A model generated the notes under the pieces. The model did no database searches. It saw nothing but the letters and a program-made list of their open reading frames with translations, and was not told where the DNA came from. Of a DNA stretch of 64,000 nucleotides, positions 7,583-63,737 are shown piece after piece. How positions within the stretch are numbered: the first letter of the stretch is position 1; every line of letters begins with the position of its first letter. Both the position numbers and the translations under genes were made by a program. Origin of the DNA: an uncultured Anaerolineales bacterium (GTDB lineage Bacteria; Chloroflexota; Anaerolineae; Anaerolineales; UBA6663); NCBI GenBank assembly GCA_964480865.1, contig CAYZRP010000024.1, forward strand, positions 698 to 64,697. The letters run 5' to 3'.

Positions 7583-10336
<2,754 letters not shown>

Positions 10337-10494: not shown

Positions 10495-11076
10495 ATGCCG
10501 AACCCACTCAACGTCGTCCTCCTTGGCGCGCCATCGACCGGCAAGACCACGCTCGCCGAGCGCCTCGCAGCCGAGCACAATACCCTGTGGATGCCCGAAT
10601 ACGGTCGCGAGTATTGGGACATCCATCAGGTCGATCGACGCCTGACGCTCGAGCAGTTGGTCGAGATCGCTGAAGGTCATCTCGAACGCGAAGTCCAATT
10701 GCTCCAGCGCGTCTCGTGCTTTCTCTTCACCGACACCAACGCCCTGACGACCCGGCTCTTCTCCCTCTACTACCACAGCGCGGTTCATCCGCGCCTCGAG
10801 GAACTCGCCCGGCTCGCCGAACGCCGCTACGACGTCGTCCTGGTCTGCGACGCCGATATCCCCTACGACGACACCTGGGACCGCTCGGGCGACGTCCAAC
10901 GCCACGACTTTCAGGGCTGGGTCCTTGCCGATCTCGATGCGCGGCACATCTCGTATCACCTGCTTCGTGGCGATGTCGAGACACGCGTGCGGCAGGCCAA
11001 CCAGATACTTGTGAGCGGTCAGCTGTCAGCAATCAGCCCACGCTGCCGCGCAGAGAGCCAAAAAGCTGATCGCTGA
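10495..11076 (+). CDS. NadR-type AAA kinase (nicotinamide riboside kinase-like), single domain
   Basis: P-loop VVLLGAPSTGKTTLAERLA, then WMPEYGREYW and FTDTNALTT. Sits directly upstream of pnuC. Start moved to the ATG at 10495. Confidence 0.75.
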   Translation: MPNPLNVVLLGAPSTGKTTLAERLAAEHNTLWMPEYGREYWDIHQVDRRLTLEQLVEIAEGHLEREVQLLQRVSCFLFTDTNALTTRLFSLYYHSAVHPRLEELARLAERRYDVVLVCDADIPYDDTWDRSGDVQRHDFQGWVLADLDARHISYHLLRGDVETRVRQANQILVSGQLSAISPRCRAESQKADR

Positions 11077-11107
11077 CAACTGATCGCTGACCGCTAACCG
11101 CTTTCCC

Positions 11108-22763: not shown

Positions 22764-22841
22764 GTGGAGCGTAGAGCGAAGAGCGAGGAGCGAAAGGCGA
22801 GTGTCTATTCAACCTTCGTCATTCGTCCTTCGTCATTCGTC
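22764..22841. repeat. Composite heptamer-repeat element (GNNGAGC units, spacer, TTCGTCN units)
   Basis: gtggagc gtagagc gaagagc gaggagc gaaaggc gagtgtctattcaacc ttcgtca ttcgtcc ttcgtca ttcgtc. The two arms are not complementary to each other. Confidence 0.85.
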
Positions 22842-25951: not shown

Positions 25952-26058
25952 CTCTTCCATTCGCCTGACAACCTTCGGACAAACACAGACGTCTTGCCGC
26001 AAGGGCTTGCCATCCGCCAGACCCGGATCGAAGATGGATGTGCTTGCGGGGGAAGTCC

Positions 26059-33943: not shown

Positions 33944-34010
33944 GACGAACGACGAAGGACGAATGACGAAGGTTGAACGGCCATTCAAGCTTCGTCATTC
34001 GTCCTTCGTC
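33944..34010. repeat. GACGAAN-heptamer hairpin element
   Basis: gacgaac gacgaag gacgaat gacgaag gttgaacggccattcaagc ttcgtca ttcgtcc ttcgtc. Lies between co-directional genes. Confidence 0.9.
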
Positions 34011-37507: not shown

Positions 37508-37522
37508 CGCGCCTGCGGCGCT

Positions 37523-37580
37523 GACGAACGACGAAGGACGAAGGTTGTCTCGCACAACCTTCGTCCTTCGTCGTTCGTCA
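37523..37580. repeat. GACGAAN-heptamer hairpin element (loop GGTTGT-CTCGC-ACAACC)
   Basis: gacgaac gacgaag gacgaag gttgtctcgcacaacc ttcgtcc ttcgtcg ttcgtc. The 43-nt core is identical to 61446..61488. Confidence 0.95.
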
Positions 37581-38133: not shown

Positions 38134-38168
38134 GGTTGAGACCTGCTTGCAATCGAGCACGAAGCACT

Positions 38169-38226
38169 GACGAAAGACGAAGGTTGTGCTGACGACAACC
38201 TTCGTCTTCATCCTTCGTCATTCGTC
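38169..38226. repeat. GACGAAN-heptamer hairpin element
   Basis: gacgaaa gacgaag gttgtgctgacgacaacc ttcgtct tcatcc ttcgtca ttcgtc. Confidence 0.9.
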
Positions 38227-39631: not shown

Positions 39632-40882
39632 TCACGCCATTGCCTTCGGGAACCGCCACACCGCCAGCCCGAAGAACACCACGGCATACGCCATCAGCAC
39701 GCTGATCGGCAACCAGACCGACTCGAGCCCCTGGCCACGGATCACGATATTCTGCAGCCCGATCATGGCCCAGGTCGCTGGCAGCAACCTGCCGATGGTG
39801 GCGAAGGCCTGGCCCGCAAACTCGAGCGGGAACCAGGTGCCGCCCATCGCCGAGAAGATGAACATGGCCATCATCGAAAACAGCACGACCTGATCGTCGC
39901 TACGCGCCAGAACACCGATGAACAGGCCCATGCATGCGACCCACAGACCGAGCGCCATTGCGATCAGCAACGTCGCGCCGGCCTCGCGCAGGTAGTCGAC
40001 GCCCAGCAGCCCCTGGCCGAGCGCCACAAGCAACAACGTCTGCGCCAGAGTGATGACGAACATCGCGAGCATATGCCCGGCCACGACCTCCCACGCCGGC
40101 ATCGACGTGGTCAACAGACGCTGCAGCGTGCGTGTCTTGCGTTCCTGCACGAGGATCTGGGCTGACGCCACAAGCCCCATGATCGCGAACTGCACCAGGA
40201 TGCCCGGTGAGGCCTGGTTGTAGGGATTGCCACCGAAGGCAGCCTCAGGCTCAGGCGCCGTTGCGCGCTCGACGACGACGCGTTGCATACCCGACTGCCT
40301 GCCCCAGGCCGACCAGGCCGTCTCGAAGGCCGCTTCGGCGTTCGACTCAGGCATCAGGGCGACGCTCAACCGCGCAATCTCGCGAGCGCTGAGCAACTCG
40401 GTCAGCGTGATCTGCACGCCCCGATATAACGCCTGTGTGGATGCCGAAGCCGGGTCTGCCACCAGGGTCAGCGGCGCGGCAACGTCCCCGGTTCCGCTTT
40501 CGGTGGCAGCACCGAAGGTGGCAGCACCGAAGGTGGCACCACCGAAGGTGGCACCACCGAAGGTGGCAGGTACCGTCAATACCCCCAACACCTCCTTGGA
40601 CTCCAGTGCACGCCGCGCTTCGTCCGACTCCATACGCACCGCGTTGATCGTGCCCGACTCGCTCAATCTTTCGAAGAGCAGCCCGGCCATGGTCGACTCA
40701 GGCATCTCGGCCACCCAGGCCACCTTGAGTCGTGGATCCGTTTCAGCGCTGGGCTCGCCCCCGCGATAGGCAAGGCCCATGAACAGCGTGAACACGATCG
40801 GCATCGCCACAAGAAACAGCAAAGACTTCCGATCGCGCACGATCTGGTCGAGGTCCTTGAGCGCAAGAGTGAAGAGACGCAT
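39632..40882 (-). CDS. ABC-2 type permease with large extracytoplasmic loop
   Basis: N-terminal TM, an approximately 200-aa loop, then 5 TM. ALKDLDQIVRDRKSL start. Confidence 0.78.
   Translation of the reverse strand: MRLFTLALKDLDQIVRDRKSLLFLVAMPIVFTLFMGLAYRGGEPSAETDPRLKVAWVAEMPESTMAGLLFERLSESGTINAVRMESDEARRALESKEVLGVLTVPATFGGATFGGATFGAATFGAATESGTGDVAAPLTLVADPASASTQALYRGVQITLTELLSAREIARLSVALMPESNAEAAFETAWSAWGRQSGMQRVVVERATAPEPEAAFGGNPYNQASPGILVQFAIMGLVASAQILVQERKTRTLQRLLTTSMPAWEVVAGHMLAMFVITLAQTLLLVALGQGLLGVDYLREAGATLLIAMALGLWVACMGLFIGVLARSDDQVVLFSMMAMFIFSAMGGTWFPLEFAGQAFATIGRLLPATWAMIGLQNIVIRGQGLESVWLPISVLMAYAVVFFGLAVWRFPKAMA
40502..40570 (-). repeat. 15-nt in-frame tandem repeat x4.6 encoding ATFGG/ATFGA in the permease loop
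   Basis: ggtggcagcaccgaa x2, ggtggcaccaccgaa x2, ggtggcagg. The protein reads ATFGGATFGGATFGAATFGAAT. Confidence 0.95.
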
Positions 40883-40901
40883 GGTTGAACTCCATCACAA
40901 T

Positions 40902-40972
40902 GGTTATTGGTCATTGGCTATTTGCTATTGAGTTCCAATAACCAATAACCCATGAACAATGCCCCATAACCC
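40902..40972. repeat. Heptamer hairpin element, GTTATTG/CCAATAA family
   Basis: ggttatt ggtcatt ggctatt tgctatt gagtt ccaataa ccaataa cccatga acaatgc cccataa cc. Lies between two co-directional permease genes. Confidence 0.85.
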
Positions 40973-42272: not shown

Positions 42273-42344
42273 GACGAATGGCGAAAGACGAATGACGAAG
42301 GTTGACAACCTGCCAGGCGAACTGTCGCTCCGGGCGACGACAGG
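42273..42344. repeat. Half GACGAAN element (left arm plus apex) followed by an unrelated hairpin
   Basis: gacgaat ggcgaaa gacgaat gacgaag gttgacaacc, then gaactgtcgc-tccgg-gcgacgacag. Confidence 0.75.
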
Positions 42345-53718: not shown

Positions 53719-53791
53719 GACGACGAACGACGAATGACGAAAGCTGCGTGAGACAACCTTCGTGTTCGTCATTCGTCGTTCGTCATTCGTC
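53719..53791. repeat. GACGAAN-heptamer hairpin element (inverted-loop variant)
   Basis: cagac gacgaac gacgaat gacgaaa gctgcgtgagacaacc ttcgtgt tcgtca ttcgtcg ttcgtca ttcgtc. Lies 15 nt upstream of the thiolase start. Confidence 0.9.
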
Positions 53792-53820
53792 AATCCCATA
53801 TTGTCTCGGTCGTCGTCGGC

Positions 53821-55035
53821 CTACGGCGCTTTCGCCAGGTTCTCGGCGAGTCTCGTCGCCAATGCTTCGGCCAGCGCGTCGTTCGGGATGCTGAGATCGA
53901 TGGCGGCGTCGCGTGTGCCAACCGGGCGTGCGGTGACCTGGACGCTGGCTACGTAACGGCCGACACGGAAATTGATTTCGATGACCGACGATTGGCCGTC
54001 GGGGTTTTGGCCCGGATCCGTGATCCGCAGCCACTTGCGCGCCGTGTCGCCGATCGCCGGGCCGGGCTGGATCTCGTTTTCCGGCGAAAGCCCAACCATC
54101 GCTGCCAGACCCGTGGCCGCGCCCTCGGCATCTTTGTAGACCGAGACCTGTTGGAACAGCAGCACACCGATGGTGCGCGCTTCTTCATCACGCGTGACGC
54201 CCTTGACCCAATATGACTGATAGCCCAGGACACGACCGGCCTTGTCGAGCACCGCTCGCGCGGCCTCCGGAAAGTCGCTGTTGAGTGTGAACGAGGGCAG
54301 TTGGGCGGTATTGATCAGCCAGCGATCGCCGAGACGTGTATCGACTTCTGCGAGTTGCGCCGGTGTCAACAGATACGGTCGAGGATCAGGCGGCGCCGCG
54401 GCCAGAAATCCTGAGGTCTGCAGCGCGGCGGGGATGGCGCGAGTGTGCATGCGATCCGCCATGGTGGCCGAGTAGGCCAGGGCCTGGGTGGCGTCAGGTA
54501 CGCCTCTGGCTGTGCCGAGCATCGACACTGACCCGATGACGTTGAGCACGCGGAAGTCCACACGCACCACGCTCTGCGCGTACGTGGGATCCGGGTCGGT
54601 GTACTTCCAGACGCGGCTCTCTTCAGCGCCAGCGACAGTGCCTTCGATCAACGACCAGCCGTCGCCGAGGGTCTCGCCCTGGAGCGCGGCCGACGCGTTC
54701 GCGGCACTGTCGAAGAGCAGGACGCGCACGCCGAGGTCGTTGAGATCGGGGTTGTCGGCTCCGGCTACGTAGCTGCCTGTGTACAGGCTCTTCAGACCGG
54801 GAACATCTACGGTTGCCGTAGCAACTTCAGTGGATGTGAGTTGCGAGACGTCGAGGACCGTCTGCTCGCTGAGCGTCCAGTCGGCCCCGGCGTCTTCCGG
54901 CAGCAGTCGGTAATTCCACACATCGCCGATGATGAGATCGCGCGAAGGCTGGTTGGAGTTGGTCCAGGCGAGCGCACCGGCGATCAAAACGCCGAGCGCG
55001 ACGAGGGCAATGACGATTGTGCGAGAGCGAGTCAT
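53821..55035 (-). CDS. Membrane-anchored extracytoplasmic hypothetical protein
   Basis: N-terminal anchor TIVIALVALGVLIAGALAW. No recognisable family. Sits between HMGCS and thiolase. Confidence 0.55.
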   Translation of the reverse strand: MTRSRTIVIALVALGVLIAGALAWTNSNQPSRDLIIGDVWNYRLLPEDAGADWTLSEQTVLDVSQLTSTEVATATVDVPGLKSLYTGSYVAGADNPDLNDLGVRVLLFDSAANASAALQGETLGDGWSLIEGTVAGAEESRVWKYTDPDPTYAQSVVRVDFRVLNVIGSVSMLGTARGVPDATQALAYSATMADRMHTRAIPAALQTSGFLAAAPPDPRPYLLTPAQLAEVDTRLGDRWLINTAQLPSFTLNSDFPEAARAVLDKAGRVLGYQSYWVKGVTRDEEARTIGVLLFQQVSVYKDAEGAATGLAAMVGLSPENEIQPGPAIGDTARKWLRITDPGQNPDGQSSVIEINFRVGRYVASVQVTARPVGTRDAAIDLSIPNDALAEALATRLAENLAKAP

Positions 55036-56292: not shown

Positions 56293-56388
56293 AAGCTGTC
56301 AGATAGCGTTCAGCGATAAGCTGTTAGCCCTCAGCGCCTGCCGAATGAGCCACCAGCTGAAGGCTAAACGCTGATTGCTGACCGCCAG
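56293..56388. repeat. Degenerate heptamer inverted repeat, AGCNNTN family
   Basis: agcgttc agcgata agctgtt agccctc agcgcct ... and the inverted gaaggct aaacgct gattgct. Imperfect pairing. Abuts the stop codon at 56389. Confidence 0.6.
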
Positions 56389-58450: not shown

Positions 58451-58866
58451 TCTAGCGGAATTGCCCGGACGCCAACAATGAGGTTGGGCCACGTGTGTAA
58501 GCACAAGTTGTCAGGCGCTTGCAGATCGGCGCCGGATCCTGTAAACGGATCACATGGATCGGCACGGATGACGCGGGGCGATTCTCGATAGATTCCGCGT
58601 GATCTGTTCCGATCCGCGCCATCCGCGTACAAGGCTTACTAGCCTGAAACGGTCGACTACTCGCCCGTGCACACTTGGGCCACGCCAGGACAAGCGTCTC
58701 TCATCCGTTCCAGGTCTGTGATGAGCCGCAGATATCGCGGATTTTTCGCTGATGCAGCAGGACGGAGTCGATCCCTTGTTCGCCGGTGACGAGACCGATC
58801 TTCCACGCAATCCGCGGCTGCATTATTCCAGGGCGATGGCTTTTTGTTTTCGAAGATCCTGTTTTG

Positions 58867-58929
58867 GCCACGAATATCATGAATGGGCACGAGTGAGAAA
58901 CGTTCGTGCCCATTCATGATATTCGTGGC
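58867..58929. repeat. Long near-perfect hairpin (26 perfect bp plus 3, 5-nt loop), AT-richer than its surroundings
   Basis: gccacgaatatcatgaatgggcacga gtg-agaaa-cgt tcgtgcccattcatgatattcgtggc. Not of the heptamer type. No U-run on either strand. Confidence 0.9.
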
Positions 58930-58994
58930 AAGTTCTCTCACTGAGACGGTTGCGATGCGATTGCCCGTAGATCCTTTCGAGGAGGCCAGACGGT

Positions 58995-60877: not shown

Positions 60878-60896
60878 TTGAAGCGCCTATGGCGCT

Positions 60897-60945
60897 GACC
60901 GAAGGACGAAGGTTGTGCGAGACAACCTTCGTCCTTTTCGTTTCG
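60897..60945. repeat. GACGAAN-heptamer hairpin element, loop in the opposite orientation (GGTTGT-GCGAG-ACAACC)
   Basis: gaccgaag gacgaag gttgtgcgagacaacc ttcgtcc ttttcg tttcg. The apex is the reverse complement of the apex at 37537..37552 and 61460..61475. Confidence 0.9.
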
Positions 60946-61445
60946 CGACGAACGACACTCGTGCGCAAGGGCCACGACGAGCCTTGGCCGTGCCATTTCG
61001 CCATTGTCTATGTGGTCCAGAGCGACCGTCTCGCTCGTTACGCCTCCATCCAGGCGTGAACGGCTCCATGCGCCTGTCATCCAGAGCGTCTGGTCACGTT
61101 CGTCCGTAACCAACTGTCATGAGCGCGAGGGATGACACGCAATGCGCGGGTACACGGCGCTATTGAGAAGCGGAATGTGCCTGGTCGTCGATGGACGCGT
61201 GGGGTGGGGTCTCTGTACAGCAAACGCGCGACATGACGGACAGGGCGGCCCTCGTGGCCGCCCCTACGGTTGTGCAATTGATCGCCGCGCCTTTGGATGA
61301 ACCCGTCGGGCGGGCTATCGGGTTTCTCGCTGGCCGTTTGGGCTCCGCCCATCCTCTCTCTGGATGACACGCAACACCCGTGGGGGACGGCTCGACGCAG
61401 CACACGGTGGCTGCTTCCCTGTCCATGCGACTCTCCCGCCAGATA

Positions 61446-61507
61446 GACGAAGGACGAAGGTTGTCTCGCACAACCTTCGTCCTTCGTCTTTCGTCCTTCG
61501 TCGTTTT
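61446..61507. repeat. GACGAAN-heptamer hairpin element followed by TTTTT
   Basis: gacgaag gacgaag gttgtctcgcacaacc ttcgtcc ttcgtct ttcgtcc ttcgtcg ttttt. Abuts the prmA stop. Confidence 0.95.
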
Positions 61508-62422: not shown

Positions 62423-62425
62423 GTC

Positions 62426-62506
62426 GTGGAGCGTGGAGCGTGGGGCGTAGAGCGAACGACCTTGCGCGGCAGCGGTCGCTTCACGCTCCACGCCCTACGC
62501 TCTACG
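62426..62506. repeat. GTGGAGC-heptamer hairpin element filling the dnaJ-prmA intergenic
   Basis: gtggagc gtggagc gtggggc gtagagc gaacgaccttgcgcggcagcggtcgc ttcac gctccac gccctac gctctac g. Includes the dnaJ stop and ends 3 nt from the prmA start. Confidence 0.92.
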
Positions 62507-63629
62507 ATTCGAGAATATCCTGCAGCCGCTCCAACAGCCCGTGCTCCAGCGGTTGGGCCTCGAGCGGGCTGGATTTGCGGAGCTCTTCGTAGAGCTTCTT
62601 CTGCTCTTTGGTGAGATCGGCCGGCGTGGCGACGTTGACGATGACGAACAGATCGCCCTTGCCGGAGCGTTGCGGCCGCGGCGCGCCCTTGCCGCGCAGT
62701 TGGAAGACGGTGCCCGACTGCGTGCCCGCGGGCACCTTCAACTTCTCGGGGCCGTAGGGCGTGGGCACGAGCACCTCAGCGCCCAGTGTTGCCTGGGCGA
62801 CGTTGATGCTCACCTCCACAAAGACCTGGTCCTCGCGGCGGCGGAAGTACTTGTGCGGGCTGACCGAGATGACGACGTACAGGTTGCCGATCGGGCCGCC
62901 GTTCGCGCCGGGCTCGCCTTCGCCCGACACGCGGATCTGCGTGCCGGTGTTGACGCCCGGCGGGATCGGGATGACGCGCTTGACGCTGCGGCGCAGCTGG
63001 CCTTTGCCACGGCAGGCGCGGCAGGGGCTCTGGATCACTTCGCCAGAACCGCCGCAGGTCGGGCACGACGAGACGTTGACCATCGAGCCCAGGAAGGTCT
63101 GGCGCACCTGACGCACCTCGCCGCTGCCCTTGCAGGTGTCGCAGCGCCTGGGCTGCGTGCCGGGTTCCGCGCCGCTGCCCTGACAGGTGTCGCAGGTCTC
63201 ATTGCGCGCGAACTCGATCTCCTGATCGACGCCGTGGATGGCCTGATCGAACGAGAGGGTCATGTCGTAGCGCAGGTCGGCGCCGCGCCGGGGCGCGCGT
63301 CGAGAGGAAGCGCCGCGGCCGCCACCGAACCCGCCGCCGAAGAACGTTTCGAAGATGTCTTCGACGCCGAAGCCGCCCGAGAAGTCAGAGGCGCCCATGC
63401 CGCCGCCGTTGACGCCGGCGTGTCCGAAGCGATCGTAGGCCGCGCGCTTCTGCTCGTCAGAGAGCACGGCGTAGGCCTCATTGATCTCCTTGAAGCGTTC
63501 GTCGGCCCCGGCCTCTTTATTGACGTCGGGATGATATTGCTTGGCGAGCTTGCGGAACGCCGACTTCAACTCGTCGCCGTTCGCGCTCTTGCCGACCCCG
63601 AGGGTCTCGTAGTAGTCGCGCTTTGACAT
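62502..63629 (-). CDS. dnaJ: Molecular chaperone DnaJ
   Basis: J-domain KRDYYETLGV...HPD. G/F region. Four CxxCxGxG zinc motifs. Confidence 0.97.
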   Translation of the reverse strand: MSKRDYYETLGVGKSANGDELKSAFRKLAKQYHPDVNKEAGADERFKEINEAYAVLSDEQKRAAYDRFGHAGVNGGGMGASDFSGGFGVEDIFETFFGGGFGGGRGASSRRAPRRGADLRYDMTLSFDQAIHGVDQEIEFARNETCDTCQGSGAEPGTQPRRCDTCKGSGEVRQVRQTFLGSMVNVSSCPTCGGSGEVIQSPCRACRGKGQLRRSVKRVIPIPPGVNTGTQIRVSGEGEPGANGGPIGNLYVVISVSPHKYFRRREDQVFVEVSINVAQATLGAEVLVPTPYGPEKLKVPAGTQSGTVFQLRGKGAPRPQRSGKGDLFVIVNVATPADLTKEQKKLYEELRKSSPLEAQPLEHGLLERLQDILES

Positions 63630-63639
63630 TGATCTGGTC

Positions 63640-63737
63640 GTGGACCGTGAAGCGTGGAGCGGAGAGCGATCACGCTACCGCGTCATGCCGCGATAGCGTG
63701 ATCGCTCCACGCTCTCCGCTCTACGCTTCACGCTTCC
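63640..63737. repeat. GTGGAGC-heptamer hairpin element filling the dnaK-dnaJ intergenic
   Basis: gtggacc gtgaagc gtggagc ggagagc gatcacgcta...tagcgtgatc gctccac gctctcc gctctac gcttcac gcttcc. Contains the dnaK stop (TGA). Confidence 0.92.

Follow-up and report, generated by a model that had tools for sequence, protein, structure and literature searches.

Repetitive extragenic palindromic (REP) elements have been known since the 1980s and intergenic heptanucleotide repeats since 1990, and to our knowledge neither the bacterial preference for seven nucleotides nor the origin of REP-like palindromes is understood. Here we describe a class of intergenic elements which behaves like the former and is built like the latter, and formally belongs to neither family. 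The elements lie in a stretch of 64,000 nucleotides from an uncultured Anaerolineales bacterium of the Chloroflexota (assembly GCA_964480865.1, contig CAYZRP010000024.1, positions 698 to 64,697), referred to below as the window. We concentrated on hairpins with arms of tandem GACGAAN heptamers, of which the copy at 37523..37580 is the focal element.

A REP is defined by a stem of 5–13 bp, an overall length of 20–40 bp and an unpaired GTAG (or GT[AG]G) tag at one end (PMC3733652). Di Nocera et al. (2013) described GTAG- and CGTC-tagged REP families of Proteobacteria, with some REPs situated within longer palindromes; the CGTC-tagged ones have an unpaired terminal CGTC, an 8–9 bp stem starting with A-T, a loop of 4–5 nt and a CCA tail (PMC3733652). 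Like REPs, bacterial interspersed mosaic elements (BIME) and REPINs, the GACGAAN elements are short, high-copy intergenic palindromes in co-directional and convergent spacers downstream of coding regions, with several families per genome and a presumed role as mRNA stem-loops. The original prediction had called them REP- or BIME-like, which holds for their dispersal, their intergenic position and their hairpin form. They differ from REPs in being built of heptamers, with stems of 20–29 bp and a length of 38–75 nt against the non-periodic REP stems of 5–13 bp, in arms that vary by whole units, and in their chloroflexotal host. GTAG was not found at the ends of any GACGAAN copy; the ends, GACG...CGTC, pair together, and an unpaired tag, whether GTAG or CGTC, is absent. 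The inner core GACG-AAGGTTGT-CTCGC-ACAACCTT-CGTC, with an 8-bp stem, A-T first pairs, a 5-nt loop and a terminal CGTC, does resemble the CGTC-tagged REPs when the two are compared by description and not by consensus sequences, whereas its CGTC is paired with GACG and the CCA tail is absent. We regard this likeness as a lead and not as membership.

According to passages of PMC4679880 and PMC4692102, Mrazek (2007) found that, among long repeat units, heptamers are the most over-represented in many bacteria, with slippage as the proposed cause, and a passage of PMC4692102 mentions the heptanucleotide short tandemly repeated repetitive (STRR) sequences of Calothrix and Nostoc (Mazel, 1990). Further heptanucleotide repeats are GGGAATC in Xanthomonas and GGGGAYT in Nostoc, for which a few inverted pairs are reported (PMC4692102), and TAACTGA repeats occur in Beggiatoaceae, Cyanobacteria and Bacteroidetes, with 1 indirect and 169 direct sets in 'Maribeggiatoa' (PMC4679880). 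The GACGAAN elements share with these long simple sequence repeats (LSSR) and STRRs the over-represented tandem 7-nt units with conserved and free positions, the mainly intergenic location, often in operons near start codons, the large number of sets (about a hundred or more per genome) and a unit number, and hence a length, that varies between relatives. The described arrays are direct and have no conserved apex, whereas GACGAAN units typically form inverted pairs around a conserved apex palindrome; the unit sequences are also unlike GACGAAN. The small dispersed repeats of Nostoc punctiforme, reportedly presented by Elhai and colleagues in 2008 as conserved inserts of 21–27 nt in hairpin or heptamer-repeat contexts with no known mobilising enzyme, are a further lead, with a conserved insert among heptamers in a different phylum and with different sequences.

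The 7-nt architecture had originally not been recognised as that of a described family. We did not find heptamer repeats or REPs of this kind described for Anaerolineae in the literature searched, where a REP survey of 2025 gives palindrome counts only for Anaerolinea thermolimosa. A search of Rfam gave no gathering-level match, and at E <= 1 there were only chance matches to miRNA or sRNA models, a single one of low score (62432-62506, a miRNA model) falling on a heptamer hairpin. The claim of novelty is nevertheless limited by the fact that intergenic heptanucleotide repeats are a known class (PMC4692102, PMC4679880).

GACGAAN hairpins in the window

Two tandem GACGAAN units (GACGAANGACGAA, with one mismatch at most) were found 27 times in the window (G+C content 64.5%), whereas 0.5 matches were expected from dinucleotide-preserving shuffles and no shuffle contained more than 3. 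The matches lie at 22815-22841, 33944-34010, 37523-37579, 38169-38226, 42273-42299, 53722-53791 and 61446-61502, and a dispersed family of tandem-heptamer hairpins is thus confirmed at the loci where it had been predicted. Altogether the window contains eight GACGAAN elements, five of them full hairpins and all intergenic (Table 1). The focal copy reads GACGAAC GACGAAG GACGAAG GTTGT CTCGC ACAAC CTTCGTC CTTCGTC GTTCGTC and occupies the 74-nt gap between the convergent genes of an M20 peptidase and a protein of unknown function. Its positions 37530-37572 are identical to 61446-61488 without any difference, as had been claimed for this 43-nt core.

The apex GGTTGT-N5-ACAACC had been thought common to the whole family. 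It occurs three times in the window (37543, 60911 and 61459; 0.1 expected) and only three elements carry it; the others have an apex of class A, a short one or a variant. Two main apex classes can be distinguished in GACGAAN elements, GGTTGAAYGGCCRTTCAACC (class A, at 33944 and 22801) and GGTTGTCTCRCACAACC (class B), while a short GGTTGACAACC is found at 42273 and variant apexes at 38169 and 53719. The element at 60897-60945 was located via its apex and not by the arm pattern because its arms are degenerate. Its loop at 60911 is GCGAG, the reverse complement of CTCGC, which was the reason for proposing that elements occur in both orientations; the inverted loop is real, but it is better explained by flipping in place between inverted arms, and a comparison of orthologous copies shows such a flip directly, for the loop as well as for the whole palindrome (see below). 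The element at 22801..22841 is not a right arm only, since five GAGCGNN heptamers at 22767-22801 form the left arm of a hybrid. The remnant suspected at about 25955..25985 is doubtful, and the predicted list, although correct in its loci, had missed hairpins of other heptamers at 62423-62508, 63644-63737, 40901-50 and 56302-56388.

The predicted folds of full GACGAAN elements are highly stable and significant, in agreement with the hairpins originally proposed: free energies lie between -40 and -60 kcal/mol and z-scores between -5.7 and -11.8, and the element at 53719..53791 has a z-score of -3.9. The folds of the one-arm array at 42273 and of the hybrid were not significant (Table 1).

Positions 1-6 of the GACGAAN unit are 96–99% conserved, which is partly a consequence of the detection rule, and position 7 is free (G 42%, T 28%, C 18%, A 12%). 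When the units were counted outward from the apex, 48 of 72 pairs of N bases from opposite arms proved complementary, where 32% would be expected (p ~1e-9). Fifteen class-A elements were aligned without gaps; pairing holds for 91.7% of cells in this alignment and drops to 23–56% in slid registers. In the same alignment 27 cells were changed on both sides, whereas shuffles gave 9.7 and none of 500 reached 27; these double changes cluster in the N columns. It is clear that the palindromy of GACGAAN elements is maintained.

Genes in the window were called by frame-specific G+C content at third codon positions. Every GACGAAN element lies between called genes, so that the predicted strictly intergenic location was borne out, and placement between co-directional genes was found as well, together with convergent spacers. 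When all heptamer arrays of the window are considered, they occupy 10 of 38 co-directional, 2 of 9 convergent and none of 8 divergent spacers, and one array is inside a gene. The elements are always downstream of a gene and often span exactly from stop codon to start codon. As they are found only downstream of genes, in co-directional and convergent spacers, the elements are probably transcribed.

Orthologous spacers and distribution of the class

The closest named relatives of the DnaJ and M20 peptidase of the window are annotated 'MAG: Anaerolineales bacterium' (MAG, metagenome-assembled genome). A Burkholderia-type source, suggested by the GC content, was rejected in view of these protein neighbours; a megablast of 20 kb against a plasmid collection, in which the window is not represented, yielded trivial matches only. 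Syntenic contigs were fetched via DnaJ and M20 homologues; identity to the window was 97% (L155), 93% (L157), 92% (L158) and 86% (L160) for DnaJ, and 98% (L161) and 84% (L162 and L163) for M20. It was found that in relatives with 92–98% identical flanking proteins the same spacer can contain an altered GACGAAN copy, a hairpin of another heptamer, a collapsed remnant, a terminator or nothing.

The dnaJ/prmA spacer has a heptamer hairpin from stop to start codon in five of five genomes, its unit being GAGCGTN in the window, GCGTCAG in L155, L157 and L160, and AGGGARG in L158. Between dnaK and dnaJ the unit is GAGCGNN in the window, GRGCGAA in L155 and AGAGGGA in L158, and L157 has a plain GC-rich hairpin there. 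Between the convergent genes prmA and infA, the spacer of L157 and L158 is 72 nt long and holds a single ordinary bidirectional terminator, whereas in the window and L155 each gene is followed by one GACGAAN hairpin, with apexes that differ between the two genomes; the two hairpins flank 500–1100 nt of another repeat. The spacer between the 404-aa gene and the thiolase gene holds a GACGAAN hairpin in the window, a diverged hairpin in L155 and an empty 35 nt in L157, and the Shine-Dalgarno sequence is kept.

At the focal site, L161 has an element of the same family with 4+3 units in place of 3+3. The N bases of this element read G,G,T,G, as against C,G,G in the window, with matching changes on the opposite arm, and its loop is GTGAG and not CTCGC. 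At the 38169 site only CACGAAGC/CTTCGTCCTTTGCC is left in L161, as expected if the centre of the palindrome had been deleted. L161 keeps the one-arm array at 42273 with two changes in one unit, while L162 has CCCTCRC heptamers there, and the site of 40901..40950 carries an unrelated small hairpin in L161. The clearest case of inversion was seen between L155 and L156, which are 99.1% identical overall and have the same DnaJ protein, yet the 94-nt dnaJ/prmA palindrome is inverted between them (L155 11124-11217, L156 10244-10337; 97.9% identity in reverse orientation); their heptamer arrays also differ. In comparisons of the window with L155, identity is about 90% for hairpin-free spacers and 53% overall for the DUF4190 spacer with its hairpin, where mismatches are concentrated in the half with the hairpin and none occurs in the half downstream. 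In three Logan contigs from strains 99.5–99.8% identical, the 53719 element was identical, without change in unit number.

When GTDB genomes were searched with the pattern GACGAANGACGAAGGTTG, at least 68 stretches were obtained. At least 30 of these, with at least 41 exact matches, belong to the Anaerolineales MAG JBGAGY01 (about 66% GC), and at least eight further MAGs of Anaerolineae or Chloroflexia contain the pattern. As copies are thus present in at least nine Chloroflexota MAGs, the family is not confined to the window. In these MAGs the matches show the architecture found in the window and both of its apex classes. Scattered matches in other phyla, among the matches listed, are not hairpins. 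Carriage by phages was considered and rejected, as none of the five pattern matches in viral contigs is a hairpin. Elements of the window and of the JBGAGY01 pieces are 85–97% identical and the coding DNA has no close similarity; a search of the fetched JBGAGY01 pieces for orthologues of window genes found none. The window and the pattern loci together comprise 35 full hairpins, along with 37 arrays of a left arm only and 35 of a right arm only. Many of these 72 one-arm arrays are visibly decayed hairpins, and the class does not, like the described LSSR and STRR, consist of direct repeats.

GACGAAN is not the only heptamer concerned. Tandem Repeats Finder reported period 7 in 22 of 70 rows for the window, and, leaving aside multiples of three, no other period approaches this number. 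Since many different heptamers build hairpins in this lineage, GACGAAN is one family among several, the most abundant of a wider heptamer-hairpin class. Metagenome contigs encoding a DnaJ 50–60% identical to that of the window contain inverted heptamer arrays, often beside dnaJ, with units such as GTGTCAR, TGTCAGA, AGTAACG, TTTCAGT/AACTGAA and TATTGCG; among the JGI metagenome contigs searched for close DnaJ relatives the best match was just 60% identical.

TCAG or GTCA cores are common among the heptamers of relatives (GCGTCAG, GTGTCAG, TGTCAGA and TTTCAGT; L132 1400-1515, L081 2765-2855, L115 1505-1600 and L155 17409-17531). The AACTGAA unit is one base off the TAACTGA repeat of Beggiatoaceae and Cyanobacteria, and the TGGTCAT unit of the window (40901-40930) resembles TTGGTCA, the unit of cyanobacterial STRR2. 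Judged by these sequences, the likeness of cores may have a shared cause across phyla. The sole heptamer array within a gene of the window is CAGCGGT x4.1 at 8868-8896, inside a 917-aa open reading frame (ORF; 7583-10336).

Table 1. Heptamer elements of the window and adjoining features, with predicted folding energy (kcal/mol) and z-score; + and - denote strands, MFS the major facilitator superfamily.
Position	Element	Location or remark	Predicted fold
37523..37580	focal hairpin, (GACGAAN)x3 / GGTTGT-CTCGC-ACAACC / (NTTCGTC)x3	perfect 27-bp stem	-58.9 (+), -60.4 (-); z -11.3 and -11.8
33944..34010	hairpin, (GACGAAN)x4 / apex class A GGTTGAACGGCCATTCAAGC / (TTCGTCN)x3	between 144-aa and response-regulator genes, both - strand	-46.2; z -8.9
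38158..38226	hairpin, degenerate CACGAAG / (GACGAAN)x2 / GGTTGTGCTGACGACAACC / right arm of about 4 units	between MFS gene and gene of unknown function	-30.3; z -4.4
42273..42310	left-arm-only array, GACGAAT GGCGAAA GACGAAT GACGAAG, then GGTTGACAACC	ends 19 nt upstream (mRNA sense) of ABC-2 permease start codon	not significant; z -0.6
53719..53791	hairpin, (GACGAAN)x3 / variant apex AGCTGCGTGAGACAACC / (TTCGTCN)x4-5	between 404-aa and thiolase genes, just upstream of thiolase Shine-Dalgarno sequence	-46.4; z -3.9
60897..60945	hairpin, inverted loop GCGAG, degenerate U-rich right tail	after infA; small hairpin 60883-60895 in front	-40.5; z -5.7
61446..61507	hairpin, (GACGAAG)x2 / apex B / (NTTCGTC)x4 / TTTTT	immediately after prmA stop codon	-40.6; z -7.6
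22767..22841	hybrid, (GAGCGNN)x5 / half apex of class A / (TTCGTCN)x4	fills gap between two ABC-2 permease genes	-28.8, not significant; z -1.5
25955..25985	possible remnant	weak; only ACAACCTTCG common to family	
37509..37521	accessory hairpin GCGCC-TGC-GGCGC	adjoins focal element; twin at 60883-60895	
62423..62508	GAGCGTN/GAGCGNN heptamer hairpin	dnaJ stop codon to prmA start codon	-52.6; z -6.0
63644..63737	GAGCGNN heptamer hairpin	dnaK/dnaJ spacer	-82.8; z -9.6
40901..40950	TGGTYAT / AATAACC heptamer hairpin	between two ABC-2 permease genes	-33.6; z -3.2
56302..56388	degenerate (NNNTCAG)n hairpin	after DUF4190 gene; orthologous to GCGTCAG hairpin of L155	
10337..10356 (+)	direct-only array GGCGTCG x2.9	co-directional spacer	
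11065-11102	direct-only array GCTGACC x5.4		

Some other repeats accompany the elements. The small hairpin AGCGCC-TRY-GGCGCT (37508-37522 and 60882-60896) directly adjoins two GACGAAN elements; that of the focal element is absent at the orthologous site of L161. A similar GGCCTACGGCGCT lies near 53813-53825, and similar GCGCCTACGGCGC motifs are found beside elements in JBGAGY01. As a window-wide family, GCGCC-N3-GGCGC was rejected, because 29 matches against 23.8 expected are no enrichment; only the two copies that adjoin elements deserve attention. The repeat YGCGTGTCATCCWG(AGCGCC), in both orientations, fills 60946-61445 between the infA and prmA hairpins. It is much expanded in L155 (12369-13170 and 552-949) and absent from the spacers of L157 and L158. 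The 490-nt spacer 58505-58994 after the FAD-oxidoreductase gene corresponds to 63 nt in L155 and contains a perfect 57-nt palindrome, ACGAATATCATGAATGGGCACGA...TCGTGCCCATTCATGATATTCGT at 58867-58931, with a weak, chance-level Rfam miRNA match; it has the appearance of a different kind of inserted element. Within an ABC-2 permease gene (40502-40569), the 15-nt unit GGTGGCAGCACCGAA is repeated 4.5 times in tandem (96% matches), which gives an in-frame pentapeptide repeat.

Possible role and origin of the elements

With moderate confidence, we interpret the elements as a lineage-wide intergenic class of heptanucleotide repeats that act as REP-like stem-loops on mRNA and change by slippage, by correction or recombination between arms, by deletion of their centres and by some route of copying. 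The stem-loop role is suggested by their position, by the stable predicted folds and by their exchange with ordinary hairpins and terminators at orthologous sites. According to this interpretation, an element would be a long inverted repeat with 2–5 tandem heptamers per arm (a GACGAA core plus a free base) and a small conserved central palindrome, and its transcript would form a very stable stem-loop, which may serve as a barrier to 3' exonucleases, as an attenuator or terminator, or as an insulator between cistrons. Unit number would shift most simply by replication slippage. The arms would be kept complementary by intrastrand template switching or recombination (quasipalindrome correction), a process which could also flip the loop or the whole element, and centres would be lost through hairpin-bypass deletion. 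Some copying route would colonise new spacers and replace old hairpins. Slippage on tandem repeats, template switching between inverted arms and hairpin-bypass deletion are established mechanisms.

Several points weigh against this interpretation. The evidence for an RNA-level role consists of position and predicted fold, and the covariation of arms fits selection on RNA structure and correction of a DNA palindrome alike. By eye, the dnaJ/prmA hairpin has four A-C and two G-U pairs in the mRNA sense, which are too few, and from a single hairpin, to tell maintenance at the RNA level from maintenance at the DNA level. One-arm arrays, left or right, are each roughly as numerous as full hairpins, and for one such array no significant fold is predicted. 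If slippage acted alone, all seven positions should become uniform; the design of a fixed core with a free base, together with an apex that is conserved despite fast local change, needs selection or a trans-acting factor. The model names no copying route. Most elements lack a U-tract, T-rich tails being present only at 60897 and 61446 and on one strand, and one heptamer hairpin is followed, 50 nt downstream, by a canonical U-tract terminator.

For the last two reasons the elements are not simply intrinsic terminators, that is, GC-rich stem-loops with a U-tract, an identity we considered and rejected. They are like them in forming stable stem-loops right after stop codons, with a U-rich tail in the infA copy, and the ordinary bidirectional terminators of L157 and L158 sit exactly at the position of the GACGAAN hairpin in the window and L155; they differ in that many GACGAAN copies are inside operons. 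A terminator scan of 33-43 kb reported no GACGAAN element. Downstream of the degenerate heptamer hairpin, the segment 56218-56300 (- strand; about 17535-17620 in L155) is 100% conserved between the window and L155 and ends with the canonical U-tract terminator GGAGACGGCGGCAACACCGCCGTCTTCTTTTT, so the organism uses ordinary terminators too.

That a single apex and a single unit persist from MAG to MAG while copies change rapidly at each site requires either re-seeding, through mobility or through gene conversion, or some sequence-reading factor. One tentative possibility, which we think of as speculative, is that heptamer-array palindromes are a distinct, self-renewing class of repeats kept by dedicated machinery that reads the apex hairpin, the 7-nt register or both. 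Its candidates may be a hairpin-specific nuclease or transposase unrelated to RAYT (the REP-associated tyrosine transposase), or a protein binding single strands in 7-nt steps. If true, it would explain the fixed core and free positions in every family, the co-variation of arms, and the same apex across genera while copies turn over within 2–3% of protein divergence; in that case a shared system, spread horizontally, might lie behind the TCAG/GTCA-core heptamers of Chloroflexota, Cyanobacteria (STRR) and Beggiatoaceae (TAACTGA).

It is unlikely that the elements are true REP/REPIN-type mobile elements, whose apex would be copied by RAYT or another IS200/IS605-like hairpin transposase, with the heptamer arms as a secondary growth. 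Dispersal in many copies, intergenic position and palindromy fit this idea, as do an apex conserved across at least nine MAGs despite fast local evolution and the spacers which are empty or carry plain terminators in L157/L158 and are filled in the window and L155; the inner core with AAGGTTGT/ACAACCTT moreover resembles CGTC-tagged REPs by description (PMC3733652). Against it speak the missing unpaired tag and the stem length, and also the perfect copies, which vary in N pattern and unit number, unlike copies of a master sequence. A tblastn search with E. coli RayT gave nothing better than E = 2 in 1.47 Mb (the window and the loci, which are part of any genome), and the Pfam matches of the fetched contigs include no Y1 transposase (Y1_Tnp) family.

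Somewhat less probable still is that the elements are neutral by-products of mutation, generated by 7-nt slippage of the replicase and by template switching and persisting where harmless, with neither function nor mobility. Heptamers are over-represented in many bacteria, for which slippage has been proposed (in the passages of PMC4679880 and PMC4692102 mentioned above); many unrelated units occur in the lineage, turnover with collapse and inversion is extreme, and the absence of arrays from divergent (promoter) spacers and their near absence from genes would fit simple tolerance. However, the same 17–20-nt apex with the same unit recurs at dozens of unlinked sites and in several MAGs, and therefore cannot be of independent origin. 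Six unit positions are strongly conserved and the seventh is free (the figure being partly biased by the detection rule), and the dnaK/dnaJ and dnaJ/prmA spacers have some hairpin in every relative, which points to a retained role.

We consider it quite improbable that the elements serve to bind a protein, such as one with a cold-shock domain, which reads single-stranded nucleic acid in steps of 7 nt and for which the hairpin would be a switch to be melted or stabilised. A fixed core with a free base does fit a repeated recognition site, and one-arm arrays are situated 10–20 nt upstream of start codons, as at 42273. Each CspB protein binds a single heptanucleotide, with a preference for 5'-GTCTTTG/T-3' (PMC1904285), and the pyrimidine arm in the register GTC-N-TTC matches 5 of 7 preferred positions; a Csp-type 7-nt reader was already proposed for the TAACTGA repeats (PMC4679880). 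Our low rating is due to the other heptamer families of the same genome: GAGCGNN, GCGTCAG and TGGTYAT are unrelated in sequence and no single specificity fits them. In addition, the arms of full elements would be locked in stems of -40 to -60 kcal/mol, and no candidate protein has been put forward.

That the elements are miniature inverted-repeat transposable elements, deletion derivatives of insertion sequences moved in trans via terminal inverted repeats, is hardly credible despite their being short, palindromic, dispersed, intergenic and variably present between relatives, as no copy shows a target-site duplication, arm length varies in steps of whole units and leaves the ends unfixed, no element with such ends that could be a parent was seen in the 1.47 Mb, and orthologous copies change in place and not by clean insertion or excision.

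Meaning for the Anaerolineales lineage

The lineage joins two classes of repeats, with palindromes that are visibly assembled from heptamers, in many families. Its orthologous sites form a series of states comprising a plain terminator, a heptamer hairpin, a flipped hairpin, a collapsed remnant and an empty site. This makes it a natural system for following the birth, the upkeep of symmetry and the loss of palindromic repeats, and their interchangeability as mRNA stem-loops.

The elements also break short-read assemblies of Anaerolineales, bacteria which are abundant in wastewater and bioreactor communities. Contigs L004-L006 start at 53764, L161 ends inside the 33991 element and L156 ends just past the dnaJ/prmA palindrome. 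As contigs repeatedly end inside or beside elements, the repeats fragment the assemblies of this lineage, and they generate spurious ORFs as well. The repeat class is real, abundant and taxonomically widespread, and it sharpens the question of why bacteria favour repeats of seven nucleotides.

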